Assembly (NCBI GenBank): GCA_036781185.1
Contig: DAIQBL010000001.1
Location: forward strand, 23,369 to 87,368
Origin: Thermoplasmatota archaeon
Lineage (GTDB): Archaea > Thermoplasmatota > Thermoplasmata > Lutacidiplasmatales > UBA184
Direction: 5' to 3'
Length of the DNA: 64,000 nt
The notes under the pieces were generated by a model. That model was not told the DNA's origin, searched no databases, and saw only the letters and a program-made list of their open reading frames with translations. A program made the position numbers and the translations under genes. The first letter of the stretch is position 1, and each line of letters begins with the position of its first letter. Positions 42,282 to 54,094 of the stretch are shown here, piece after piece.

Positions 42282-42710
42282 TCAGACCGGCGCGCGCAGG
42301 TGGTACCCCGCGGCGCGGTCGGCCGTGATGTGCCCGGCCCAGGCGAGCATCGGCCACGGGACCTCCCGGGTCAGCAGTGCCCAAACCGAGAACACCGCTC
42401 CCCAGACCAGGAGGTTGTGGAACGTGTTGTACAGCGTCGGCCCCCAGCTGGGCCAGTCCCGGGATCCCCGGGACCCAAGGCCGATCGGCACGAACGCCGC
42501 GATGTCCGGCCAGAGCGCCCAGAAGATCGTCAGGAGAACGCTCGTCAGCGGAAAGTCGTGCAGCACCCCCCATCGCCAGCCGAACAACGCGAGTAGGATC
42601 GCGATCGTCGCGGCCGCGTACTCGGCCCGGTAGAGCGTCGAGTTCAGGCGCAGGAATGCCGGACCCCACGGGGGGGCCGGCGCGTCGGAGCTCCGGATTT
42701 CCACGGCCAC
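42282..42710 (-). CDS. Small membrane protein (about 4 TM), hypothetical
   Basis: A GTG start gives MAVEIRSSDAPAPPWGPAFLRLNSTLYRAEYAAATIAILLALFGW...; the rest of the 394-aa track ORF is Arg-rich junk. Confidence 0.5.
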   Translation of the reverse strand: MAVEIRSSDAPAPPWGPAFLRLNSTLYRAEYAAATIAILLALFGWRWGVLHDFPLTSVLLTIFWALWPDIAAFVPIGLGSRGSRDWPSWGPTLYNTFHNLLVWGAVFSVWALLTREVPWPMLAWAGHITADRAAGYHLRAPV

Positions 42711-43304
42711 GTGAGACCTCCGGATTAGAGAAGCTTGGCCGAACTTCGTCGGGGCATCGGGGCCGGCCCAGTGATTCGACGGTCCCGTGTCCGTGGGAGC
42801 CCTACGGGGAGGGTTCGACCGTTGGCGCGGACCCCCTCCACCGTTCACCGTCCGTCCGCCCGCGAGGGAACGTGACCCCTCGCCCGGTCCCTCGCTCAAC
42901 ACACCCAACGAGCATCGGCCGGACCCCCGTCGCGCGGCTCCCACACCAGGGATCCCTCGCCACCGATCCGCCCGATCCTCCGAACCTCCCCCGTCGTCCG
43001 ACCGGCGCGACCGTCCGTCGCCCCGAGAAGGCCGACCGAACGACCGGACCCCGAGGCGGGCCGGAGCGCGGGGACGCTCCGACCACCGCCGGGCGCTGAG
43101 CGGGCACGCTGCCGGAAGTCGGCCGCCTAGCCGCTCCTCGGCGCGCCTCGGGGTCCGGGATCTTCCCGGTGCCCGCACCGGACCGGGTCGCTCCCAGATT
43201 CTGCTCCCCGACTCCGAGGAGCGGGCGGACAACGGGCGCGGCCCTCGAGCGAACGACCGACCGAGCGGGACGCCCCCCGCGTCCCGACCGTAGCCCGCCC
43301 ACCG

Positions 43305-43670
43305 GTGGTCCGCCGGCGGGAGGGAGGATGGTCCCGAATGTTGACATCGCGAAGCGCCGTACGGCGCCCCCCGGAACCGGTTCGCGCTCCCACACCCGAA
43401 CTCCCTGCGTCCCTTCCCCGCATCCGCCGCCTGGGCCGCGTTCGACTGCCGGTCACCCTCGGCCACCGACCGTGGGCGACCGCCTACCGGATGCCGAACG
43501 GCCGGGTCGTCTGGTGCGTCCGCCTCTGGCAGGACGGCTCCGTCGTCCGCGCCGTGGTCAGCACGGCGGTCGTCCGCTCGTACGCCGAACGATCCGGACT
43601 CGCGCGACTTCTCGCCGAGGTCGAAGCGCTGGCGGAGCCGGAGGGAGGAGCGTGCCCGACGGTCGCGTGA
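43305..43670 (+). CDS. Hypothetical small protein upstream of the VirD4/HerA-like ATPase
   Basis: 121 aa (RVVWCVRLWQDGSVVRAVVSTAVVRSYAERSGLARLLAEVEALAE). It overlaps the next gene start. Confidence 0.4.
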   Translation: MVRRREGGWSRMLTSRSAVRRPPEPVRAPTPELPASLPRIRRLGRVRLPVTLGHRPWATAYRMPNGRVVWCVRLWQDGSVVRAVVSTAVVRSYAERSGLARLLAEVEALAEPEGGACPTVA

Positions 43671-46267
43671 CCTCCGCCGCGTGGTTCGAGCCGCGCAGCG
43701 ACCACTGGTCGGGCCCGTTCCTCGACCGTCTTGCCTCGCTCGCCGCCGCCACTCGGTTCGGGACCGCCTGGCTGGTGGTCCGCCGGACCGGCCTCGCCGG
43801 GGCCGTGGTCCTGGGAAGCGACCCGGTGGCCCGGGACCTGATCGAGTCGGCCGCCAGCCCGTGGCCGGCTCGGGTCACCCCGGTCGGCCCGGCGGCGTTC
43901 GGGTCGCCCTCTCCGCTCGACGGCCTGGCGGCGTTGGCTCGCCCAGGATGGGGCTGGCGAACGACCGAGGCCGGCGTCCCCGCGCCGGACCGAGCAGCCC
44001 CGGACCGCGATCGCGTCCCTCCCGAACTCTCGGTTCCGCCCGGCGGGCGACAGTGCCACTGGTTCTCGACGGGCACCGGCCGGCTCGCGGTTCGTGTCCG
44101 AGTCTGGGCGCGGGCCCAACCGACCGCCGCCCCAGGGTCGCTCGCCCGGCTCGCCCTCGACGGGATCGAGACGTTCCGTCACGCGGGCGTCCCGGCCGAG
44201 CTCCGCGAGCTCCGGAACACGACCGGGCGACGGGAGGCGTGGCGGACCGGGCGGGTCGGCTCGTTCGCCTCAGGCCCGCTCGAACGCCTTCTGCCGGCCG
44301 TCGCGGCGCGGCTCGCCCTCGGCTCGTCCCCGCCGGTGCGGCTCGACGATTCGGCCGTCGGGCGCCACATCGTGGCGGTCGGCGCGTCGGGCGCCGGGAA
44401 GACGTCGTTCCTCGCCGACCTGGCCGCCGCCCGGATCGGGCGCGGCGGCGCGGTCCTCGCCATCGACCTGCACGGCGACCTCGCCCCCGCGATCGTGGCG
44501 CGACTGGCGCCGGCGATCCGGACATCGGTCGTCGCGGTCGACGCCGCCGGTCCGCTCGACCAAGTGCAGGGCGTGCGCCTCCTGGGAGGTCGGAATCAGA
44601 CGGCGGAGGATCCGGGGCCCGCGCACCTCGTGGCGGCCCTGAAGCGCCTCACCTCGGATTCCGGCGACGTCTACTGGGGGTTCCGACTGGAACGGACGCT
44701 CGAGGCGTTCGTGCGGCTCGCCCACGAGGAGGGCGGGGGACTGCTCGACGTGTACGAGCTCCTCACGGACGCCCGTCGGAGGGACGCCGCCCGTCTCACG
44801 ACGCGGGACCGAGCGCTGGCCAACTTTCTGGATGAGATCCCGACCCTGTTGCGGCGCAACCCCGAGTACCTCGCGCCCGCGACCGCGCGCGTCGCGAAGG
44901 TCGCTCTCGCGCCCCGAATCGCGCGGCTGCTCGACCCGGCCGGCCCCGGTCTGCCGGTCGAATCTCTTGTCGGGCGCGGACGGTCGATCCTCTGGCGGAT
45001 CCCGTTCGCGCAGCTCGGACCGGAGGCGGCCAGCTTCGCGGCGACGCTGCTCGTGGCCCACGCGTACTTCGGTCTCGCCGCGCTGGGCCCCGGCCGACCC
45101 GACGAGCTTCGGGTCGCGCTCATCGTCGACGAGGCCTCCGCGCTCTCCCCGCGCCTCCTCGCCGAGATCCTGTCGGAGGGCCGGAAATTCGGCGTCGGGG
45201 CGGTCGTGGCCACGCAGTATCCCGGGCGCCTCGCCCCGGAGGCCCGGGCCGCCGCGGAGGGCGCCGCGGGCACGCACGTCGTGTTCCGCGTCCCCCCGCC
45301 GGTGGCCGCGGCGACGGCGGCCTGGGCCGGCCTCGACCGGTCCGCCGAGGCCTGGCTGCCGGCCCTACCGGACGGCACGGCGGTCGCGGTCCGTTCCGGG
45401 GACTCCGGCTCCCGCGGCGCGATCCAAGTGGCGCGGGGACCGCCCGACGACCCGGCGGCCTGGGAGGAGGTGTGCGAAGCGAGCGCTCTCGCGGCGGCGG
45501 AGTCCGACGGGGAACCCGGCGACGTTCCCCGCACGGTCTCGGACGCCGTCATGTTCTCGCTCGCCGCGGGACTCGGCGACGCGGGCACCCTCGCCGCCCG
45601 GGTCGTCGGGGTTCTCGGAGAACCGGTGGAGCCGGCGGTCGTGAACGAGAGCCTCGTCCGTCTCGGGCGACGTGGCTGGGTGACGAACATCGACGGCCGG
45701 TTCGACCTCACGGACGCCGGCGCGCGGTATCTGGGGGTCGGGGCGCCCACCGGGGCGATCCGCGAAGGCGCGGAGCATCGAGCGCTCCTGTACCACGCGT
45801 TCGGGATCCTCGCCCGCCGGGGCGCCCGGCTGGAGCTGGTCCGGCAGGGGCGGTTCGACCGTCGGCTCCCGGACGCGGTCGTCCGGCTCCTCCCCCCCGG
45901 GGTCGGTCACCGAGGTCCGGCGGAGCTGGCCCGCGCGGTGGATGCGGCGCGCTCGACGTGGGCGTGGCGCTACTTTGGCGGACGAGACGTGGACGTCGAA
46001 GCCGAGGTGAGCGGGGCGCTGCGCCCCGACCGGGTCCGGCGCAATCTGGCGAAGGCATCGGACCAGGGTCATTTTGCCCTGTTCCTCGTCGCGGACCCCG
46101 CGCGGGCGCGACGGATCCGGACCGTCCTCGCCGAAGCGGCGGCGGGAATCGGGACCGCTCAGGTCTGGACGCTCGTCCGGGCCCGGGCGGCGTCGCCGTC
46201 GGCCGGCGAGGGGACGGACGGGAGCGGTGGGGCGGTCCGTGGCGGCAGCCCCCCGCCCTCACCGTAG
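43652..46267 (+). CDS. FtsK/HerA-superfamily P-loop ATPase (VirD4/TraG-coupling-protein-like or DUF87) with a C-terminal winged-helix and extra domain
   Basis: Walker A HIVAVGASGAGKTSF followed by AIDLHGD; Walker B RVALIVDEASAL; and GVGAVVATQYPGRL (TQ-P motif). GTG start at MPDGRVTSAAWFEP. No TM helix. The roughly 350-aa C-terminal extension includes MFSLAAGLGDAGTLAARVVGVLG (wHTH-like). Confidence 0.6.
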   Translation: MPDGRVTSAAWFEPRSDHWSGPFLDRLASLAAATRFGTAWLVVRRTGLAGAVVLGSDPVARDLIESAASPWPARVTPVGPAAFGSPSPLDGLAALARPGWGWRTTEAGVPAPDRAAPDRDRVPPELSVPPGGRQCHWFSTGTGRLAVRVRVWARAQPTAAPGSLARLALDGIETFRHAGVPAELRELRNTTGRREAWRTGRVGSFASGPLERLLPAVAARLALGSSPPVRLDDSAVGRHIVAVGASGAGKTSFLADLAAARIGRGGAVLAIDLHGDLAPAIVARLAPAIRTSVVAVDAAGPLDQVQGVRLLGGRNQTAEDPGPAHLVAALKRLTSDSGDVYWGFRLERTLEAFVRLAHEEGGGLLDVYELLTDARRRDAARLTTRDRALANFLDEIPTLLRRNPEYLAPATARVAKVALAPRIARLLDPAGPGLPVESLVGRGRSILWRIPFAQLGPEAASFAATLLVAHAYFGLAALGPGRPDELRVALIVDEASALSPRLLAEILSEGRKFGVGAVVATQYPGRLAPEARAAAEGAAGTHVVFRVPPPVAAATAAWAGLDRSAEAWLPALPDGTAVAVRSGDSGSRGAIQVARGPPDDPAAWEEVCEASALAAAESDGEPGDVPRTVSDAVMFSLAAGLGDAGTLAARVVGVLGEPVEPAVVNESLVRLGRRGWVTNIDGRFDLTDAGARYLGVGAPTGAIREGAEHRALLYHAFGILARRGARLELVRQGRFDRRLPDAVVRLLPPGVGHRGPAELARAVDAARSTWAWRYFGGRDVDVEAEVSGALRPDRVRRNLAKASDQGHFALFLVADPARARRIRTVLAEAAAGIGTAQVWTLVRARAASPSAGEGTDGSGGAVRGGSPPPSP

Positions 46268-46791
46268 GCGCGGTGGTGCATCTCCTCGAGGACCGCCTGG
46301 CTGAGATAGGTCAGCGCCGCGTCGTTGAGCCGGTCGAGGTGAAGGAGGAGGTAGTGCAGGTAGATCCGCTCGGGACGATGGGACGGTCCGGGCGGGCGTT
46401 CCGGATGCCCCAGGGAGGGGACAGAGTCCGAGGCGACGGTCGCCAACGTCTCGGCATGGTGCTCGGCGTTCTTGCCGTGCAGCGACCGCCCCGTCGGACC
46501 CACGAGCGGCGGGTAAACGCGCGAGATCGGGTCGTCGGGCCCGTCCGAGGCGATCGACGCCGCGCGCGCGCTCTCGGCCGCGGCGTCCGTCTCGAGCCGC
46601 CACTTCGTGTACGGGTGCGCGGGCCGGTTCGGATCCTGGAACTCGGCGATCGGTCGTCCCCCGACGTCCTCGACGATCGACTTCAGGCTCCAGCTGTCGC
46701 GACGCCGGCCGGGCCCATCCATCGAGGGAGCGGGCTCGGCGGACACGAAGTCCGCGAGCCCCGACCCCCGCTCATAAACGTGCGGTTCCAT
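46159..46791 (-). CDS. Hypothetical protein, last gene of the minus-strand T4SS-like operon
   Basis: 210 aa of normal composition. It overlaps the VirB4-like gene by 20 nt, and its 3-prime end overlaps the convergent ATPase gene. Confidence 0.45.
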   Translation of the reverse strand: MEPHVYERGSGLADFVSAEPAPSMDGPGRRRDSWSLKSIVEDVGGRPIAEFQDPNRPAHPYTKWRLETDAAAESARAASIASDGPDDPISRVYPPLVGPTGRSLHGKNAEHHAETLATVASDSVPSLGHPERPPGPSHRPERIYLHYLLLHLDRLNDAALTYLSQAVLEEMHHRAYGEGGGLPPRTAPPLPSVPSPADGDAARARTSVQT

Positions 46792-48439
46792 CGGCCCGCG
46801 CCTCGGCGTCGGTCGGGGAACGGAGCGAGCGGGCGAGGAGCTCGAACTCCGGCGTCGAGGCGACGACCGCGACCGGGAGGTGCGACGGGCCGAACCGCAG
46901 GAGTCCCTCGGAGTACCCCGCCTCCCGGGGGAGCCGGCATTGGGGAAGCCAGCCGGCCTCCGCGTCGGTGAGCGCGAAGAACCGACGGGTCGCCTCGGAG
47001 ACCTCGGCCAGGTGGAGGAGGAGCGTGGCCCGGAGATTCCGCAGGAGCGACCGCCCTCCGTCGGTCCCCAGAAAGTCGTCCGGGTTCTGGCTGAGCAACA
47101 CGACGCCGGTCCGGTAATGCCGGACGTGCCGGACGATCCGGTCGAGGAACTCGGCGGTGGCGGGGTCCCGAGCGAGGAGGTGCGCCTCGTCGATGACGAG
47201 GAGCTTCGGTCGGTCGTCGCGCCGGATCCGTCCGTACAGGGCGTCGAGGACCACCGCGAGGTGGAACGCCCGCTGACCCGCCGGGACCTCGTGCAGGTCG
47301 ACCACGAGCGAGCCGGTCGGCGGGGGCTCGACGGCCACGCGGTCGAGGTGCGCGAGCGATCCGGAGACGAAGACGTCGAGGAGCCCGGCGAGTCGCCCGG
47401 GTCGGTCCGCGGCGAGGACGATCTCCCGGAGTCGGGCGAGCGTCGGCCGCTCGACTCCCGCGTACAGCCGGGCCACCGAGGCGTCGAGAAGCGCGACCTC
47501 CTCGTCCGCGAGCGAGGGGAACGCGGCCCGCAGCGCCGTCACCACCCGGGCCGCCTTCTCCGGTAGGTCGCCGCCGGTCGTGGCGGCGTCGAGCGGGTGA
47601 AAGCGCGCCGGGGCATTTCGTCCGACGCCGACCACGGTCGCCCCGAGCGGGCCGGCGAGGCCGGCGAACTCCCCGAGCGGGTCGACGATGTACACCTCGA
47701 GGCCCGGCGTCATCCAGCGGGTCCGGAGCGCGAGCAGCGCGGCGGCGAACGACTTCCCGGACCCCGTCGCCCCGAACACCCCCCAGGAGTAGCTCGCATG
47801 CCGCCACCGGTCGAGGAACACCGGGGCCGCGTCGTCGAGGAGGAGGCCGACGAGGACCCCGTGCGGCTCGACGATGGCCTCGTCGACGAAGGGGAAGAAC
47901 GCCGCGACCGCGTCGGTCGGGAGGGTCTGCCAGTAGCCGGGCGGCCGCGGCTCGCTTCCGTCGAGCGCCGGAGCGGCGGACGCGGCGGCGGCCTCGTACG
48001 GCGCGGTCGACATCCCGAACCCGAGGGCAGCGAGACGGCGGGCCAGCTCGGCTCGCTCCCGCTCCAAGCTCGCGGGCGATGTCGCGAGGGCGTGGAACGA
48101 GAGGCCGACGCGGAACAGCTGCTGGTCGTTCGCGGCGAGCCGGCGCTCCAGGTCGTGCGCGCTCTCCGCCTCGAGCTCGAGTTCCGGCAGGTCCCGGGCG
48201 CCCCCCGATTCGATCTCTGCCTCAGCAACCACGGCCGCGCTCCGGACCATCGATAGGGCGCGGTCGCGGCCGATTCGGTGCAGCTGGAGGCGGAACTCGA
48301 ACGTTCGGCTCGTGGGGAGGACGCGGGACAGGAACCCGAACGGGACGGCCTTCGGGAGGGTCCGCGCGAGGAGGGTTCCGTCCAGCCGACCCCGTCGGAT
48401 CACGAACCGCGGGGCCTCGTGCTCCGGTCGCCCCGTCAT
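46772..48439 (-). CDS. VirB4/TrbE/CedB-like type-IV-secretion ATPase
   Basis: Walker A VFGATGSGKSF followed by YIVDPLGEF; Walker B KLLVIDEAHLL; and GVVLLSQNPDDF. This is the CagE/TrbE/VirB (AAA_10) pattern. The start is at the internal Met (MTGRPEHEAPRF). Confidence 0.75.
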   Translation of the reverse strand: MTGRPEHEAPRFVIRRGRLDGTLLARTLPKAVPFGFLSRVLPTSRTFEFRLQLHRIGRDRALSMVRSAAVVAEAEIESGGARDLPELELEAESAHDLERRLAANDQQLFRVGLSFHALATSPASLERERAELARRLAALGFGMSTAPYEAAAASAAPALDGSEPRPPGYWQTLPTDAVAAFFPFVDEAIVEPHGVLVGLLLDDAAPVFLDRWRHASYSWGVFGATGSGKSFAAALLALRTRWMTPGLEVYIVDPLGEFAGLAGPLGATVVGVGRNAPARFHPLDAATTGGDLPEKAARVVTALRAAFPSLADEEVALLDASVARLYAGVERPTLARLREIVLAADRPGRLAGLLDVFVSGSLAHLDRVAVEPPPTGSLVVDLHEVPAGQRAFHLAVVLDALYGRIRRDDRPKLLVIDEAHLLARDPATAEFLDRIVRHVRHYRTGVVLLSQNPDDFLGTDGGRSLLRNLRATLLLHLAEVSEATRRFFALTDAEAGWLPQCRLPREAGYSEGLLRFGPSHLPVAVVASTPEFELLARSLRSPTDAEARADGTARL

Positions 48440-48792
48440 CGCTCGACCTCCGGACCGGCCAGCGTGCGCTCCGTCGTAACGGCGAGCGCGGCCGTGGCGA
48501 GTCCGAGGAGGCTCCCGCGGAGTATCGCCCAGGGGGGGACGGCGAAGAGCGCGAACGCCAAGGCCCCCGATACCCCGACCACGACCCAACGGTCGCGTGC
48601 AGGGGACGTCCGAAGCCGGCGGGTCCGCACCCGGACCGCCCAGGCCAGTAGGCCGATCGCCGCGAGCGCCTCGGTCAGTCCGAGGAGGTACGGCTCGAGG
48701 AGGGAGCCGACCCCGGCCAAGGCCCCGAACGCTCCGGCGGCGCGGAGCGGGTCGATCTCGAGCGGCGCGCGGAGCAACCCGCCAATCTTCAC
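48436..48792 (-). CDS. Small membrane protein (3 TM) in T4SS-like operon (CedA2/VirB3-like position)
   Basis: A GTG start overlaps the upstream stop (GTGA). VKIGGLLRAPLEIDPLRAAGAFGALAGVGSLLEPYLLGLTEALAAIGLLAWAVRV. Confidence 0.5.
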   Translation of the reverse strand: MKIGGLLRAPLEIDPLRAAGAFGALAGVGSLLEPYLLGLTEALAAIGLLAWAVRVRTRRLRTSPARDRWVVVGVSGALAFALFAVPPWAILRGSLLGLATAALAVTTERTLAGPEVER

Positions 48793-49565
48793 GGCCGCCG
48801 CTCCGGCAGAAGCGCGAGACGGTCGAGCTCCGCCCTCAGGGCGCGGCCGGTCAATCGCTCCGCGTCGACGCCGAGGACCCTGAGCGAGGCCGACGCGGCG
48901 TTCAGCCGGACCTCCAGCCGGGCCGCGCCGGCGCGGTCGGCGGGCTCCCAGAGGACCAACGCCACGCTCCGGGTGCGCCGGCGACGGACGAGAAGCTCGA
49001 CGACGTCGCGGTAGCCGTCCTGGGCCGTGCCTTCGGCCGATCCGGCGGCGGCCGGAGCGGGTGGCCGGAGCGTCGCGGGGGAGAGCGGTTCCGAGCGGGC
49101 GACCAGGTAGACCGGCCCGTCGAGCGAGGCCAGCCACTGCCGCGTCGCCTCGAACAGGGCCCGGGCATCGGCGGGCGGCAGGTACGCGACCGGCACCCCG
49201 CCGGACCGGAGTACGGCGGCGATCCGGCCGGACCCAACCCGCATCGTCCTAAGCCGGGCCGACGCGGGGGAGGCCGACCCCGACCCGCCCCGGGTCCGGG
49301 TCCGTCGGCGCCATTGCCAGCCGAGGTAGCCGGTGACCCGCTCGTCGAGGGACCGCCCGTCGCGGCGATGGACCGCGACGAGGAATCCCAGGGCGGCGAA
49401 CGGCAGCACCGCGAGCGGTCCCGCGAGCGGGACCGCGACGAGCCCGGCGCACGCGAACCCGGCGAACTTGAGCGCGTCCCGGGCGGAGGGGAACGGTCCG
49501 AGGTGGAGCCGCCGGTCGACCGGCCTCGGGAGAGCGACTTGGCCCGGGGGTGCCTCCTCGATCAT
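48789..49565 (-). CDS. Membrane-anchored hypothetical protein in T4SS-like operon
   Basis: N-terminal two hydrophobic helices (FAGFACAGLVAVPLAGPLAVLPFAALGFLVAV), then a soluble domain. Confidence 0.5.
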   Translation of the reverse strand: MIEEAPPGQVALPRPVDRRLHLGPFPSARDALKFAGFACAGLVAVPLAGPLAVLPFAALGFLVAVHRRDGRSLDERVTGYLGWQWRRRTRTRGGSGSASPASARLRTMRVGSGRIAAVLRSGGVPVAYLPPADARALFEATRQWLASLDGPVYLVARSEPLSPATLRPPAPAAAGSAEGTAQDGYRDVVELLVRRRRTRSVALVLWEPADRAGAARLEVRLNAASASLRVLGVDAERLTGRALRAELDRLALLPERRP

Positions 49566-49569
49566 CGGG

Positions 49570-50712
49570 TCACCGTAGGTCGCGCAGCCGCTCCGGGTGG
49601 TCGCGGTCGAGACCGCCGAACCGCCGCGAGGCGGCCGCGAGTCGGGCGCCTTTCAGATGGCCGAACAGCGCCTCGGCGCCCCGCCCGATCCCTTCGGCGG
49701 CGAGGAGCGGAGCCGCGAACGGGAGCGGGGCCCGGACGGCGGCCACGACCCCTCCGGCGGCGGGGCGAACCTTGGACGTCCCCCGAGCGGCCGACGCCAG
49801 AGGGCGACCGATCGACGCGAGCCCGGCGGAGGCCGACGATAGGCCGCGCTCGACCCCACCCGTCAGCGCGCCGCCGGCCGAGGGAAAGCCGATCCGCCCG
49901 AGCTGCACCCCGGCGACGTTGAGGAGCGACGGAGCCCCGAGCGCGATCGCCAGGTAGGCGACGAGGAGGAGGGCCGAGGGCGCGCCGACGGCCAGCTCGA
50001 GCGGGATGACGACCGCGACCGGGAGGAACGCGAGCTCGCCGAACAGGAGCCACGACCGCCGGGCGAGCGGGGCGAGCGCCGGGATGGGCCAGACGAGGCT
50101 GAACGCCGGAAGGAGGACGAGCAGCACCGCCAGCATCGCATCCCGGGCGGCGACGGCGATCGCGAGCAGCAGGACGAGCGAGAACAGCGTGAACGAGAGG
50201 ACGAAGGCGAGAAGTCCGTTGTCCCACGAGAACTTCAGCCCGCCGATCCCGGTGAGGTTGGTCCAGGACTGCCACGCCCCGCCATCGAATCCGGCGACGA
50301 CCGGGTACACCGACCCGGCGACGTCGAGGATCGCGGCCGCCACCGGAACGGTGACGTTCGCCAGCACGACCGACACGACGAGCCGCGGGAGGAGAGACTC
50401 GAGGCGGGTCCGCGTGGGGGAGGTCACGGCCCGGGCCAGGTACACCGCGCCGACCGCGAGCACGACGAGGACGACCGCCGGGTCGACCACGTTCGCGACC
50501 AGGTAGTCGGAGAACTGCGCCGCGAGAGTCAGGAACGACGACGACCCGCCCGAACCCGGACCGAGCAGGGGCGGATACGCCGAAGCGGGGGCGAGCTCCG
50601 GAACGAGGAGGTCGTCGTACGTCGGGAGCGTGACCGCCCACAGGATCCCGGTCAGCGAGGCGAACAGCGCGAACAGGAGGGCCTGGACCGCGTCCGACAG
50701 CGAGGCGCCCAT
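49570..50712 (-). CDS. Polytopic membrane protein, VirB6/TrbL/CedA-like candidate
   Basis: 381 aa from the internal Met (MGASLSDAVQALLFALFASL), with about 8 TM helices and a hydrophilic C-terminus. Confidence 0.55.
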   Translation of the reverse strand: MGASLSDAVQALLFALFASLTGILWAVTLPTYDDLLVPELAPASAYPPLLGPGSGGSSSFLTLAAQFSDYLVANVVDPAVVLVVLAVGAVYLARAVTSPTRTRLESLLPRLVVSVVLANVTVPVAAAILDVAGSVYPVVAGFDGGAWQSWTNLTGIGGLKFSWDNGLLAFVLSFTLFSLVLLLAIAVAARDAMLAVLLVLLPAFSLVWPIPALAPLARRSWLLFGELAFLPVAVVIPLELAVGAPSALLLVAYLAIALGAPSLLNVAGVQLGRIGFPSAGGALTGGVERGLSSASAGLASIGRPLASAARGTSKVRPAAGGVVAAVRAPLPFAAPLLAAEGIGRGAEALFGHLKGARLAAASRRFGGLDRDHPERLRDLR

Positions 50713-50720
50713 CCGGCCCC

Positions 50721-51092
50721 CTAGGCACCGGTCAGGACCCACTGGGCGAGTCCCCAGATCAGGCCGGAGAGCGCGGCCGCGAAGATCAGGGTACCGACGA
50801 GCGCGTCCCGGGCCCGGTCCTTCGCCTGGATCTTCTTCGTCACGTCGTTCGAGAACCAGGAGAGGGCGACCCGGGCCCACACGATGGCGAGCAACCCACC
50901 ACCGGAGAGTCCGAGAAGGACCACGATCCGGTTCACCACCTCCGAGAAGTTTGCGACCGCGGAGCCGTTCGCGCCGGCCGATGTGGCCGGATGGAGCGGA
51001 GCGAGCGGCGGGACGCCGAGCGACGTCCCTCCGACGAATCCGAGGAGCACCAGCGTCAGGGCAGCGAAGGCCGCGGGGAGCGCGGCGGTCAC
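50721..51092 (-). CDS. VirB2/TrbC/TedC-like conjugative-pilin candidate (signal peptide plus two hydrophobic helices joined by a basic loop)
   Basis: MTAALPAAFAALTLVLLGFVGG (signal), helix 1 VVNRIVVLLGLSGGGLLAIVWARVALSWF, basic loop SNDVTKKIQAKDRARDA, helix 2 LVGTLIFAAALSGLIWGLAQWVL. Length 123 aa. Confidence 0.5.
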   Translation of the reverse strand: MTAALPAAFAALTLVLLGFVGGTSLGVPPLAPLHPATSAGANGSAVANFSEVVNRIVVLLGLSGGGLLAIVWARVALSWFSNDVTKKIQAKDRARDALVGTLIFAAALSGLIWGLAQWVLTGA

Positions 51093-52903
51093 GGCGCCCC
51101 CGCGCTCTCATCGGTCGAAGTCGGGACCGAGGTCGGTTCCGGCGTGGGGGGGGCTGCGACCCACCGCACCAGTTCTCGCCCGTCCCCGTCGTCCCCGATC
51201 CGCACGCGCCCGGCTCGACGCCAATAGTCGAGCGCCGAGCCCAGTTGCTCGGAGGTCATGCGACGCTCCTCGGCGAGCAGTTCCAGCGTGGCCCGGTCGA
51301 CGCCGTCCTCGGCGTCTTCGAGGAGCTCTCGGACCGTCGTCCGTCCGGGTCCTTCCGGCGCGGACGGCTTCGGGGTCCGGCGAAGCCTCCGGCCCCATCG
51401 CCGGATCGAGTACCCTCCGACGAGGGCGAAGAGGGCTCCCCCGAGCGCTCCTGCCAGGAGCCATCCGGACGCCGACGGATTTCCGGCGAGCGGCGGGGCC
51501 GGAGCGGCCCCACTCGAGGCGACGTAGAAGGTGAAGGTCACGTTCGCGGAGCGCCCGGTCGCATCCGTCACCGACCCCCGGAGCGTGACGTAGCCCGACG
51601 CCACCGGCTCGATGGTCCAGGGAACGACGCCGGACGCGGAGGTGTTGCCGGCACTCGACTCCCCATCCGATAGGGACAGTCGGTAAGCGTAGGGGGCCAG
51701 CCCCCCGGCGATCGCGGCGCGCACGGCCACTCCCGCGTCGACGCTCGGGTCGGTCGTTCCGAGGGCGACCGTCAGGTTGAGGCCGGCGGCGACGTCGACG
51801 GTCACGTTGGCCGTCACCCGGACGCCCGAGCCGTCGACGAGCGACAGGGGGAACGCGACCGGTCCGACCTCGGCAAACGTGACCGAGAGGCCGATGGGGC
51901 CGTCGTTCGGGAGCATGCCGTCCGAAGGTGATTCGGCGCTGACTCCGCCGGTCGGTTGGGCTTCCCAGGCGAAGGGGGGCGTCCCCCCGGCGACCTCGAC
52001 CGACAGCGGGGTCGGGTATCCGACCTCGGCGAACGGCACGCTCGGTCCGCTGAGCGATGGGCCGGGCGTCGCCCGCCCGACCGGCGTCAGGCCATCGAAG
52101 CTCCGATTCCAGACGTCGACGACGGAGGCGAGGACCCAGACCGGACCGGGGCTCGACGGGACGACCGCGAGCTCGTACGTCCCGTCGGACGGGACGACGG
52201 TCGTGCCGTTCGAGCGACCGTCCACGACGGACCAGTCGACGGTGAACGGGCCGGATCCGGCGGTGAGATTGGCGGAGAAGACGAACGGCACGCCGACGTC
52301 GCCCAGCCCACTCGCGCTCGCCACCTCGAGGAACGGAGCCCCGACGACGTCGATCGTCGTGGTCGCGTACGCGTACGCCCCGGCGTGGTCGCGGACCTCG
52401 AACAGGACTTCAACGGAGCGTACGGCATCGGGGGCGGTCCAGTCGAGGGACCATCCGGAGGTGACGTTCCCCGTTTCGAGGCTCCAGAACGGATCGTACG
52501 GTTCGGCACCCCCCGAGGCCGTCCCGGCCAGCCTCACGGTGACGCCGACGTCGACCCGCGACGGGGCCGAAACGATCGTCGCCACGAGCGCTCCGGTGCT
52601 GGGTCGACTCCCGATGGTCCGGCTCGGGTGCGATTCCGGGGGGGCGGCGTCGAGCGCCGAGCCGAGGGTGGGGTTCCCGGCGCGCGGCGGAGTCGTCGGG
52701 AGTCGCGACTCCGTCGCCGAGGGAACGAGAACGGGTGTCGCCGTTCGGTGGGTCGGGAGACCGACCAAGGGCGGGAGGTCGGGCCGAGTCGGTGGGATCC
52801 CCGGCACTCCGCCGGGGAGGGCGCTCAGGATCAGCAGGGCGGCGACGGGTCCAACCAGCCACGGGTCCACGGTTCGCGTCGAGGGCGTTCGCACAGCAAC
52901 CAC
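51089..52903 (-). CDS. Secreted surface protein with PKD/Ig-like repeats and a C-terminal TM anchor plus a cytoplasmic tail; first gene of the T4SS-like operon
   Basis: Signal peptide, repeated beta-rich segments with N-x-S/T sequons, a C-terminal TM (GWLLAGALGGALFALVGGYSI) and a tail containing ELLAEERRMTSEQLGSALDYWRRAGRV. Confidence 0.55.
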   Translation of the reverse strand: MVAVRTPSTRTVDPWLVGPVAALLILSALPGGVPGIPPTRPDLPPLVGLPTHRTATPVLVPSATESRLPTTPPRAGNPTLGSALDAAPPESHPSRTIGSRPSTGALVATIVSAPSRVDVGVTVRLAGTASGGAEPYDPFWSLETGNVTSGWSLDWTAPDAVRSVEVLFEVRDHAGAYAYATTTIDVVGAPFLEVASASGLGDVGVPFVFSANLTAGSGPFTVDWSVVDGRSNGTTVVPSDGTYELAVVPSSPGPVWVLASVVDVWNRSFDGLTPVGRATPGPSLSGPSVPFAEVGYPTPLSVEVAGGTPPFAWEAQPTGGVSAESPSDGMLPNDGPIGLSVTFAEVGPVAFPLSLVDGSGVRVTANVTVDVAAGLNLTVALGTTDPSVDAGVAVRAAIAGGLAPYAYRLSLSDGESSAGNTSASGVVPWTIEPVASGYVTLRGSVTDATGRSANVTFTFYVASSGAAPAPPLAGNPSASGWLLAGALGGALFALVGGYSIRRWGRRLRRTPKPSAPEGPGRTTVRELLEDAEDGVDRATLELLAEERRMTSEQLGSALDYWRRAGRVRIGDDGDGRELVRWVAAPPTPEPTSVPTSTDESAGAP

Positions 52904-52968: not shown

Positions 52969-53619
52969 TCAGAGGTCGATCGGGAGCGCCACGTGCTCCC
53001 GGGAGAACGGCCCGAGGTCCACGCCGGCCCCGACCCGATGGCCGGCGTCCGTCAGCTCGCGACGGGCCAGCCGCGCCACCTCGCCAGGCGCCCTACGCTG
53101 CGTGACCGAGCGGATCTTCAGCATGAGAAGTCCGGTCCGCGCCCGGCACGTCACCGCGTTCTCGCGGTAGATCCTCGGCTGATCCCGCTGCGCCACGTCC
53201 TGGTAGAGGAGGTCCACCGGGCCGACGTCGGCGGCGTATCGCTCCGGGAGCTGGGCGTCCGCGAGGATCGGGAGCACGTTCGAGCGACGCCGGGCGAGTG
53301 CGAGCAGGGGCGCGAACGAGGGCGGGCTCTTCTCGATCGCGAAGATCGTGGCATCCGGAAGAGCGTCAGAGAGATGGCTCACCGTCGTCCCGTGGGCGGC
53401 GCCGAGATAGAGAACGGTCCGAACGCCCTGGAACAGGGGAAACGGTTCGGCCTTGCCGAGGTACGCGGCGAGCTTCGACCGCCAGGGGTCCCATCGGCGG
53501 AACTCGGAACCGGACTCCGAGCGGAGGTCTTCGCCGTACACCGCCTCGCCGGGGACGGCGTTCCGTGTGTACAGGTCGCGCCCGATCCGGTACACCCCGG
53601 GCCAGCCGGTCGGCTCCAC
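52969..53619 (-). CDS. flpA: Fibrillarin-like rRNA/tRNA 2'-O-methyltransferase
   Basis: GVYRIG...AVYGE...RRWDPWRSKLAA...VLYLGAAHGTTVSHLSD...IFAIEKSP is the canonical fibrillarin pattern. No Nop5 or L7Ae gene lies adjacent. Confidence 0.8.
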   Translation of the reverse strand: MEPTGWPGVYRIGRDLYTRNAVPGEAVYGEDLRSESGSEFRRWDPWRSKLAAYLGKAEPFPLFQGVRTVLYLGAAHGTTVSHLSDALPDATIFAIEKSPPSFAPLLALARRRSNVLPILADAQLPERYAADVGPVDLLYQDVAQRDQPRIYRENAVTCRARTGLLMLKIRSVTQRRAPGEVARLARRELTDAGHRVGAGVDLGPFSREHVALPIDL

Positions 53620-53629
53620 GATCGCCCCG

Positions 53630-54094
53630 CTACCTCAGCCGGACGAGCAGTTCGACCTCGACCGAGGCCCCGAGCGGGAGCGACGCGACGCCCATCGAGA
53701 CCCGCGCCGGCCGACCGTCCTCGCCGAAGACGCGGATGAGCAACTCGGTCGCGCCGTTGGCGACGTCGGCGTGCTGGGTGAACTCCGGTGTGGACGCGAC
53801 GTACACGGCCACTCGCACGACGCGGGCGACCCGGTCGAGCGTCCCGAGCTCGGCCGAGAGCGCGCTCAGCGCCTGCAAGGCGGCCTGCTCGGCGGCCAGC
53901 TTCGCCTGGGCCAGCTCCACCGTGCGGCCCACGATCCCCGGGTGGACCGGGCGGCCGTCGACGTGGGGGATTTGGCCGGCGACGTACGCATGGTCCCCGT
54001 CGACGACGACCGGGCGGTACGTACCCGCCGGCCTCGGCGGTGGAGGGAGCGTGACCCCGAGCGCGCGCAGCCGCTCCGCGACGTCGGGAGCCAT
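53630..54094 (-). CDS. RidA/YjgF/L-PSP-family protein
   Basis: 154 aa with DRVARVVRVAVYVAS...ARVSMGVASLPLGASVEVE, characteristic of the Rid family C-terminus. Confidence 0.7.
   Translation of the reverse strand: MAPDVAERLRALGVTLPPPPRPAGTYRPVVVDGDHAYVAGQIPHVDGRPVHPGIVGRTVELAQAKLAAEQAALQALSALSAELGTLDRVARVVRVAVYVASTPEFTQHADVANGATELLIRVFGEDGRPARVSMGVASLPLGASVEVELLVRLR

Follow-up and report, generated by a model that had tools for sequence, protein, structure and literature searches.

A chromosomal gene cluster of Thermoplasmatota derived from a type IV secretion system, with a split VirB4 and a candidate role in DNA exchange

The VirB4-family ATPase is the only protein common to all type IV secretion systems (T4SSs), and the T4SSs of monoderm bacteria usually do without a pilin. 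ComB of Helicobacter pylori, a chromosomal T4SS derivative built from VirB2-, VirB3-, VirB4- and VirB6-like parts, has neither VirD4 nor a relaxase and imports DNA. The archaeal Ced and Ted systems are T4SS derivatives as well; they consist of VirB4, VirB6 and VirB2 homologs and serve the exchange of chromosomal DNA (PMC9905601, PMC11868833). Here we describe seven genes, g1 to g7, in a 64,000-nucleotide stretch of a Thermoplasmatota archaeon genome (contig DAIQBL010000001.1, positions 23,369 to 87,368; hereafter the window), which resemble Ced and Ted in that they form a chromosomal, lineage-wide, T4SS-derived set of a VirB4, a VirB6-like polytopic membrane protein and a small candidate protein of the two-helix pilin type, with no relaxase. 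The comparison with Ced and Ted had been drawn in a preliminary description of the locus and proved apt for a chromosomal system of this kind. The best matches of the ATPase g6 lie in monoderm T4SSs of mating-pair-formation class FATA (MPF-FATA; pCF10 with PrgI/PrgJ/PrgH, and the CD1110-family VirB4 of integrative and conjugative elements (ICEs) of Firmicutes) and in VirB4 loci of haloarchaeal megaplasmids. We consider it reasonably probable that g1 to g7 encode a machine derived from such a monoderm-type, MPF-FATA-like T4SS, which is chromosomal and vertically inherited and moves DNA between conspecific cells.

That the cluster is T4SS-derived, as had been proposed, is borne out by the VirB4 identity of g6 together with the VirB6-like predicted fold of g3. 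Among the NCBIfam models, the VirB4-like CD1110 family ranks first for g6 (2.3e-36 over 438 residues, 85-522), below its equivalog cutoff, followed by the Mycoplasma ICE VirB4 (2.7e-26), TraC (9e-14) and CedD (1.4e-10), while HerA is reached only at about 1e-3. Compared with the PDB, a profile of 12 g6 orthologs aligns over 348 positions with the C-terminal domain of VirB4 (4AG5, 2e-26); HerA-like helicases follow at 3e-7 or worse and over short stretches. Since the scores of VirB4 models and of a solved VirB4 structure are over 20 orders of magnitude better than those of HerA, g6 is assigned to VirB4 and not to the generic HerA helicases, and the VirB4/TrbE-like ATPase of the preliminary description stands, as do all the motifs quoted for it: GATGSGKS (Walker A, residue 223), IVDPLGE (251), VIDEAHLL (415, containing the Walker B motif VIDEAH) and SQNP (450). 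The nearest plasmid-borne relatives of g6 are haloarchaeal megaplasmid proteins annotated as 'DUF87' (24% identity over 95% of the query); further ones are found on Gram-positive conjugative plasmids and on one Sulfolobus plasmid. Against the CedD model g6 scores 40.5 bits at a cutoff of 600, and no CedB match was obtained in NCBIfam. The closest named relative belongs to Candidatus Lutacidiplasma silvani (81% identity), and every close homolog of the cluster proteins comes from uncultured Thermoplasmata archaea.

The N-terminal part of this VirB4 is encoded separately. In Gram-positive systems, PrgI is the equivalent of VirB3. Pfam PrgI (PF12666) is weakly matched by nine of 30 g4 orthologs, and TraC_F_IV, also weakly, by two of the 30. 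A HMMER search with the g6 profile returned 7467 relatives, many of them 750-1100 aa long and matched by g6 only from about residue 320 on. In more than 30 of these long VirB4 relatives, the N-terminal 250-290 residues align collinearly with the g4 profile, with E-values down to 2e-13. In the fused relatives the PrgI domain occupies the extreme N-terminus (above the Pfam gathering cutoff in four of the seven examined) and is followed by weak CagE_TrbE_VirB or TraC_F_IV matches and then by the P-loop domains; one of these proteins is named 'PrgI family protein' by NCBI, another stems from a Thermoplasmata archaeon. Because the g4 profile fits the N-termini and the g6 profile the remainder of fused relatives with PrgI, g4 is, on sequence grounds, the detached N-terminus of VirB4: g4 and g6 are one PrgI(VirB3)-VirB4 protein, which is split here with g5 in between. 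Thus, what had been listed as a separate membrane-anchored protein is the split-off PrgI/VirB3 and N-terminal portion of VirB4, and with the predicted product of g4, archaeal systems are seen to include an element of VirB3/PrgI type. A search of all PDB chain sequences with the g4 profile gave nothing meaningful. The VirB4 N-domain is also spread over two polypeptides in Ced, namely CedB and CedD (PMC11868833); these, however, are two paralogous ATPases, whereas here the hairpin and N-domain are set apart from a single ATPase.

In nearly every locus that holds g4 and g6, the intervening g5 is represented by an ortholog of 113-131 aa in the same position, with overlapping starts and stops (the call in locus L082 is aberrant). 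Its sequence diverges too far for tblastn, and the orthologs were identified by where they lie; mean column identity in its alignment (A7) is only 39%. Neither a family match in Pfam and NCBIfam scans nor a counterpart in the fused VirB4 relatives was found. A plasmid-borne counterpart with related gene order is present on a haloarchaeal megaplasmid of Haladaptatus sp. DYSN1 (L085, 7238-15100), where a 132-aa PrgI-like hairpin, a 352-aa protein, a 745-aa VirB4 and a 1441-aa P-loop protein are followed by primase genes; MOB-suite types this plasmid as MPF_T and 'non-mobilizable'. Comparison of g4, and likewise of g8, the ATPase gene convergent with the operon, with the single proteins of this plasmid (hhalign, BLASTP) gave no informative match.

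For the membrane part of the machine, structure prediction and alignments provide the evidence. The AlphaFold2 model of g3, built with 39 homologs, has a mean pLDDT of 71.7, a pTM of 0.63 and about seven long helices, and its predicted fold is VirB6-like. Of the earlier claim of a VirB6/CedA-like protein with roughly eight transmembrane (TM) segments, the VirB6 likeness is thereby supported, whereas the model has about seven long helices and no Ced model is matched. A precomputed match to Pfam TrbL_3 (PF19590) exists for the g3 orthologs P0137, P0203 and P0234 (E<=1e-5 for P0137); it was not reproduced by hmmscan against current Pfam and is graded weak. In alignments of g2, a variable, signal-peptide-like N-terminus, similar in kind to the N-terminal segment of TedC, and a variable linker ending in conserved N-x-S/T sequons precede two almost invariant hydrophobic helices joined by the basic loop KKVQAKDRARD (SNDVTKKVQAKDRARD); the predicted model agrees with this layout. 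Sequons outside and a basic loop inside correspond to the membrane topology known for propilins of the VirB2/TraA type. By architecture alone, g2 is thus a candidate for a VirB2/TedC-like pilin. Profiles of g2 and g3 matched no PDB chain sequence at E<=10, and the two proteins themselves matched no NCBIfam model at E<=0.1.

The operon is headed in most loci by g1, which consists of an N-terminal signal or anchor, about five PKD/Ig-like repeats, a TM segment (residues 478-496) and a conserved tail. PKD is matched by nine of 28 g1 orthologs (best 2.5e-9) and Big_9 by 15 of the 28, and the repeat motifs GGxPPY...W..GDG are conserved (alignment A9). The designation as a PKD surface protein therefore holds for the orthologs, while g1 of the window itself stays below PKD significance. 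The C-terminal tail matches winged helix-turn-helix (wHTH) families, namely DUF5817_CT in 11 of the 28 orthologs and also EutK_C, Rrf2, GntR and MarR. Because the orthologs match PKD/Ig-like families and the tail past the second TM segment matches winged-helix families, g1 is predicted to be bitopic, with the PKD repeats outside and the winged helix inside the cell.

Taken as parts of one machine, a hexamer of g6 would dock on the membrane via g4 and energise a channel formed by g3. The pilin candidate g2 would be pulled out of the membrane and built into a pilus of the VirB2/TedC kind or a short conduit, and g1 would mediate contact between cells and either bind DNA or regulate the operon. 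The machine would then import DNA from conspecific cells or exchange it with them, as in Ced, Ted and ComB, which also work without a relaxase. In the closest clade, g8 may act as a coupling-type motor.

Compared to MPF-FATA systems, the operon shares a PrgI/VirB3-like hairpin associated with VirB4, a VirB6-like channel and the lack of outer-membrane core components; it differs in that it does not lie on a mobile element, in its split VirB4 and in the presence of a candidate pilin, and neither the block nor its flanks yielded a relaxase, a VirB8-like protein, a cell-wall hydrolase or a conserved type IV coupling protein. With ComB it has in common a chromosomal T4SS-derived set without VirD4 or relaxase, but ComB belongs to a diderm bacterium and contains the VirB7-10 core components, and no direct relatedness is evident. 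Ced and Ted, in turn, belong to another phylum than Thermoplasmatota and have been studied functionally, whereas the present operon is known from its genes; g2 and g3 have no detectable similarity to Ced models, and g1, with its combination of PKD and wHTH, g5 and g7 have no counterpart in either system.

Several observations weigh against a DNA-transfer machine of this composition. No profile or fold match links g2 to any conjugative or archaeal pilin, so that of the two-helix pilin claim only the signal-like N-terminus, the helix hairpin and the basic loop stand, and helical hairpins are widespread. Unlike CedA1 and CedA, g2 and the N-terminus of g3 show no similarity in hhalign. The model behind the VirB6 assignment of g3 is of moderate confidence (pLDDT 72), and no TrbL/VirB6 match came from hmmscan of the g3 orthologs. 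Missing from the locus are a VirB8-like protein, a relaxase and a conserved coupling protein; the scheme above gives no role to g5 and g7; and DNA is a substrate inferred by analogy with Ced, Ted and ComB. Finally, the similarity of g6 to VirB4 of bacterial and haloarchaeal plasmids far exceeds that to CedB/CedD, because of which the analogy with Ced is one of system logic, not of orthology.

The most serious alternative, which we nevertheless regard as unlikely, is that the machine is T4SS-derived and moves no DNA at all, acting instead as an adhesive or contact pilus or in protein secretion, for attachment, contact or antagonism, in the manner of effector-translocating T4SSs or of the T4SS that Patescibacteria use for epibiotic growth. 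The structural results (VirB4, a VirB6-like fold, a split PrgI) suit such a role equally well, the locus lacks a relaxase and a conserved coupling ATPase, a large PKD-repeat surface protein heads the operon, and chromosomal monoderm-type T4SSs with non-conjugative roles are noted in a 2025 review of T4SSs (PMC12857230). On the other hand, the archaeal T4SS-like systems of studied function in the literature consulted (Sulfolobus plasmids, pT33-3, Ced and Ted) move DNA (PMC9905601, PMC12857230, PMC11868833), no effector-like or toxin/immunity genes were seen in the conserved block, and the cytoplasmic winged-helix tail of g1 suits nucleic-acid binding or regulation.

The distribution of the operon bears on its mode of inheritance. 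The g6 ATPase is encoded in 123 species-level genomes, almost all of them labelled Thermoplasmata, with one record labelled 'bacterium'. In about 60 loci, to which all synteny counts refer since only loci recovered with enough flanking DNA are covered, tblastn shows g2-g4, g6 and g7 in a constant order right behind a DUF885(-)/RidA/fibrillarin block, and this order and these neighbours hold down to 51% VirB4 identity. Exceptions are the few complete loci in which g1 has no tblastn match, two loci with an extra gene before g7, and L032, which shows no fibrillarin block. The G+C content at third codon positions (GC3) is 0.86-0.92 for the cluster genes, equal to that of the flanking housekeeping genes, in a window of about 72% G+C; the comparison of composition with the chromosomal backbone that had been proposed as a check thus speaks for native genes. 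Because of this GC3 and of positional orthologs in dozens of genomes, g1 to g7 are coding genes and not chance open reading frames (ORFs).

A reading in which the genes are those for mating-pair formation in an integrated conjugative element or a plasmid remnant, with g8 as the VirD4/TraG coupling protein, draws on the closest plasmid-borne relatives of g6, on the matches of g8 to TrwB_AAD_bind and to a T4SS DNA-binding protein given below, and on the analogous order of PrgI-like protein, VirB4 and giant P-loop protein in Haladaptatus. It is largely refuted by the fixed site and neighbours in some 60 species and appears very improbable: the expectation of a variably present element failed in every relative with enough flank. 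The flanks consist of housekeeping genes, and neither there nor in the conserved block was an integrase, relaxase or replication gene found, in agreement with the preliminary description as to integrase and relaxase; a scan of viral and mobile-element contigs gave no close relatives, only distant P-loop matches; and g8 adjoins the operon only in the closest clade. No co-conserved coupling protein and no att-like tRNA was seen either. A tRNA-Pro(GGG) of 91 nt called by ARAGORN at 43770-43860, considered as a candidate att site, lies inside the coding sequence of g8, is unconfirmed by Rfam and was rejected as a false positive. Since the operon sits at the same site in about 60 species, has native composition and comes without integrase or relaxase, it is best understood as a vertically inherited host system and not as a conjugative element, a pattern in which it agrees with the likewise chromosomal Ced and Ted (PMC9905601). 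Of the conjugation or DNA-exchange apparatus first suggested, conjugation by a mobile element is thus largely excluded by synteny, while a domesticated, Ced/Ted-like system fits.

The convergent ATPase g8 carries the motifs GASGAGKT and IVDEAS and a C-terminal winged-helix-like region. Its only Pfam match above cutoff is TrwB_AAD_bind (25.4 bits, P-loop region only); against the PDB it reaches HerA at 2e-4 and TrwB at 3e-3, a search of plasmids returned a single match, a T4SS DNA-binding protein (3e-5), and the C-terminus weakly matches HVO_A0261_N. Adjacency to the operon is limited to the seven closest loci, and a 46%-identical homolog keeps its HxlR/p199 neighbours with no operon within 10 kb; hence g8 is by its local arrangement probably a neighbour and not a core part. 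The proposal of a VirD4/TraG coupling protein with a wHTH-like extension thus retains a weak VirD4 likeness and a weak C-terminal wHTH signal, whereas synteny ties g8 to the HxlR block; a functional link with the operon is possible, although unsupported by synteny. Upstream of g8 orthologs, the sequence of the small ORF g9 is conserved in two further loci (L001, L002); it has no Pfam match. Least credible of all is that the ATPases are generic HerA/FtsK helicases in repair or in anti-phage defence (MADS-like, HerA-partnered) and the membrane genes unrelated neighbours, for despite PADLOC mad8 matches (g6 8.5e-18, g8 1.9e-13) and weak matches to HerA models, PADLOC hits only generic ATPase (mad8/HerA) models, VirB4-specific models and structure lie far above HerA for g6, the conserved block has no NurA, nuclease or methylase partner, translational coupling and joint conservation bind the membrane genes to the ATPase, and g4 is a piece of VirB4 itself. 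For g6 a HerA-type role is thereby refuted; g8 may still have one.

The features of the locus are collected in Table 1.

Table 1. Genes of the T4SS-derived locus and its convergent neighbours, with positions in the window and assigned or candidate identities.
Gene	Position	Strand	Length	Description
g1	51089-52903	-	604 aa	PKD/Ig-like surface protein, single-pass membrane, wHTH-like tail
g2	50721-51092	-	123 aa	VirB2/TedC-like pilin candidate
g3	49570-50712	-	380 aa	VirB6/TrwI-like polytopic membrane protein, candidate translocation channel
g4	48789-49565	-	258 aa	PrgI/VirB3-like TM hairpin and first part of VirB4 N-domain
g5	48436-48792	-	118 aa	Small multi-pass membrane protein between the two VirB4 parts
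g6	46772-48439	-	555 aa	VirB4-family ATPase: second N-domain part and RecA-like ATPase
g7	46159-46791	-	210 aa	Soluble His-rich protein, last operon gene
g8	43652-46267	+	871 aa	HerA/FtsK/VirD4-superfamily P-loop ATPase, converges on g7
g9	43338-43670 (likely start 43338)	+	~110 aa	Small conserved ORF

The seven co-oriented, overlapping minus-strand genes were all recovered as ORFs, at most a few codons from where they had been described, and the translational coupling claimed for the operon is present as 4-nt overlaps at g1/g2 (GTGA), g4/g5 (GTGA) and g5/g6 (ATGA). The genes g6 and g7 overlap by 20 nt, gaps of 8 nt and 4 nt separate g2 from g3 and g3 from g4, and the convergent overlap of g7 with g8 measures 109 nt (46159-46267). 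The start of g3 is the ATG at 50712, not the long-ORF start at 51111. Position 43305, given in the preliminary description, falls to the ORF of g9, whose overlap with the start of g8 is 19 nt. A scan of the locus for promoters and terminators of bacterial type found nothing.

Upstream of g1, on the same strand and across a gap of 65 nt, lie the fibrillarin and RidA/YjgF genes (52969-54094), which are syntenic in nearly all loci; read-through co-transcription of the operon with fibrillarin, a core RNA-modification gene, is possible. On the other side, about 600 bp between g9 and a minus-strand gene for a small membrane protein ending near 42700 (42720-43330) are very GC-rich. This interval gave no convincing ORF and no Rfam match; a promoter driving g9-g8, or an unannotated element, may lie in it.

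The last gene of the operon, g7, lies downstream of g6 in most loci and is tblastn-positive in several where the ORF call failed. Its conserved motifs (alignment A8) are RRRxSWSLKxIVEDVAGRPI, YPPLVGPTGR..HG.EHEHH.ETL and PERIYLHYLLLHLDRL; Pfam and a profile search of the PDB gave no match. In two loci an extra ORF is inserted between g6 and g7, nucleotidyltransferase-like in L029 (11693-12927) and glutamine-amidotransferase-like in L060 (11636-12759), with g7 kept downstream in both. An apparent g6-g7 fusion of 841 aa in L056 (OY970259.1, 9959-12484) was rejected: its translation degenerates past the g7 core motif, most likely owing to a frameshift error in a long-read assembly. The C-terminal tail of g7 (..ARARTSVQT) is conserved in the closest relatives, which may reflect only the constraint imposed by g8 on the opposite strand.

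The order to which this archaeon belongs was described from acidic soils (PMC9287336); the operon is absent from that description and from the 2025 review of T4SSs (PMC12857230). Our literature search returned a single related mention and no link of Thermoplasmata with VirB2, VirB6, CedA or TedA. This mention concerns 'type IV secretion components' of Cuniculiplasma, listed as arCOG04034 (VirB4), arCOG05369 (multipass) and arCOG05340 (membrane protein), with a VirD4-like arCOG04816 at a separate locus (PMC5155288). The two sets are alike in that VirB4, multipass and small membrane proteins form one cluster while a VirD4-like ATPase is encoded elsewhere, a likeness drawn from the annotation list, which assigns no VirB2, VirB3 or VirB6, mentions no split VirB4 and gives neither synteny nor function; the Cuniculiplasma genes are probably the same class-wide gene set.

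In conclusion, the operon adds a further phylum to those with a domesticated T4SS, and it stands out by its split PrgI-VirB4 and its new accessory genes. The split VirB4 is a naturally occurring case in which the coupling of the ATPase to the VirB6 channel through N-domain and hairpin can be dissected. More tentatively, and with somewhat less confidence than we place in the machine itself, we suggest that, with Ced and Ted as the first two, it is the third conjugation machine domesticated independently in Archaea, providing Thermoplasmatota-wide DNA exchange with a VirB3/PrgI element (recently stated to be absent from archaea), a VirB4 split around a membrane protein, and a single polypeptide that joins extracellular PKD repeats, as a sensor or adhesin, to a wHTH domain in the cytoplasm. 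So far, T4SS-derived exchange of chromosomal DNA has been documented in Archaea only for the Crenarchaea. If our reading is true, this principle would extend to a second archaeal phylum through an abundant, uncultured soil order of Thermoplasmatota, and the operon, which could underlie the extensive homologous recombination in natural Thermoplasmata populations, would be a concrete gene set to test as its cause.

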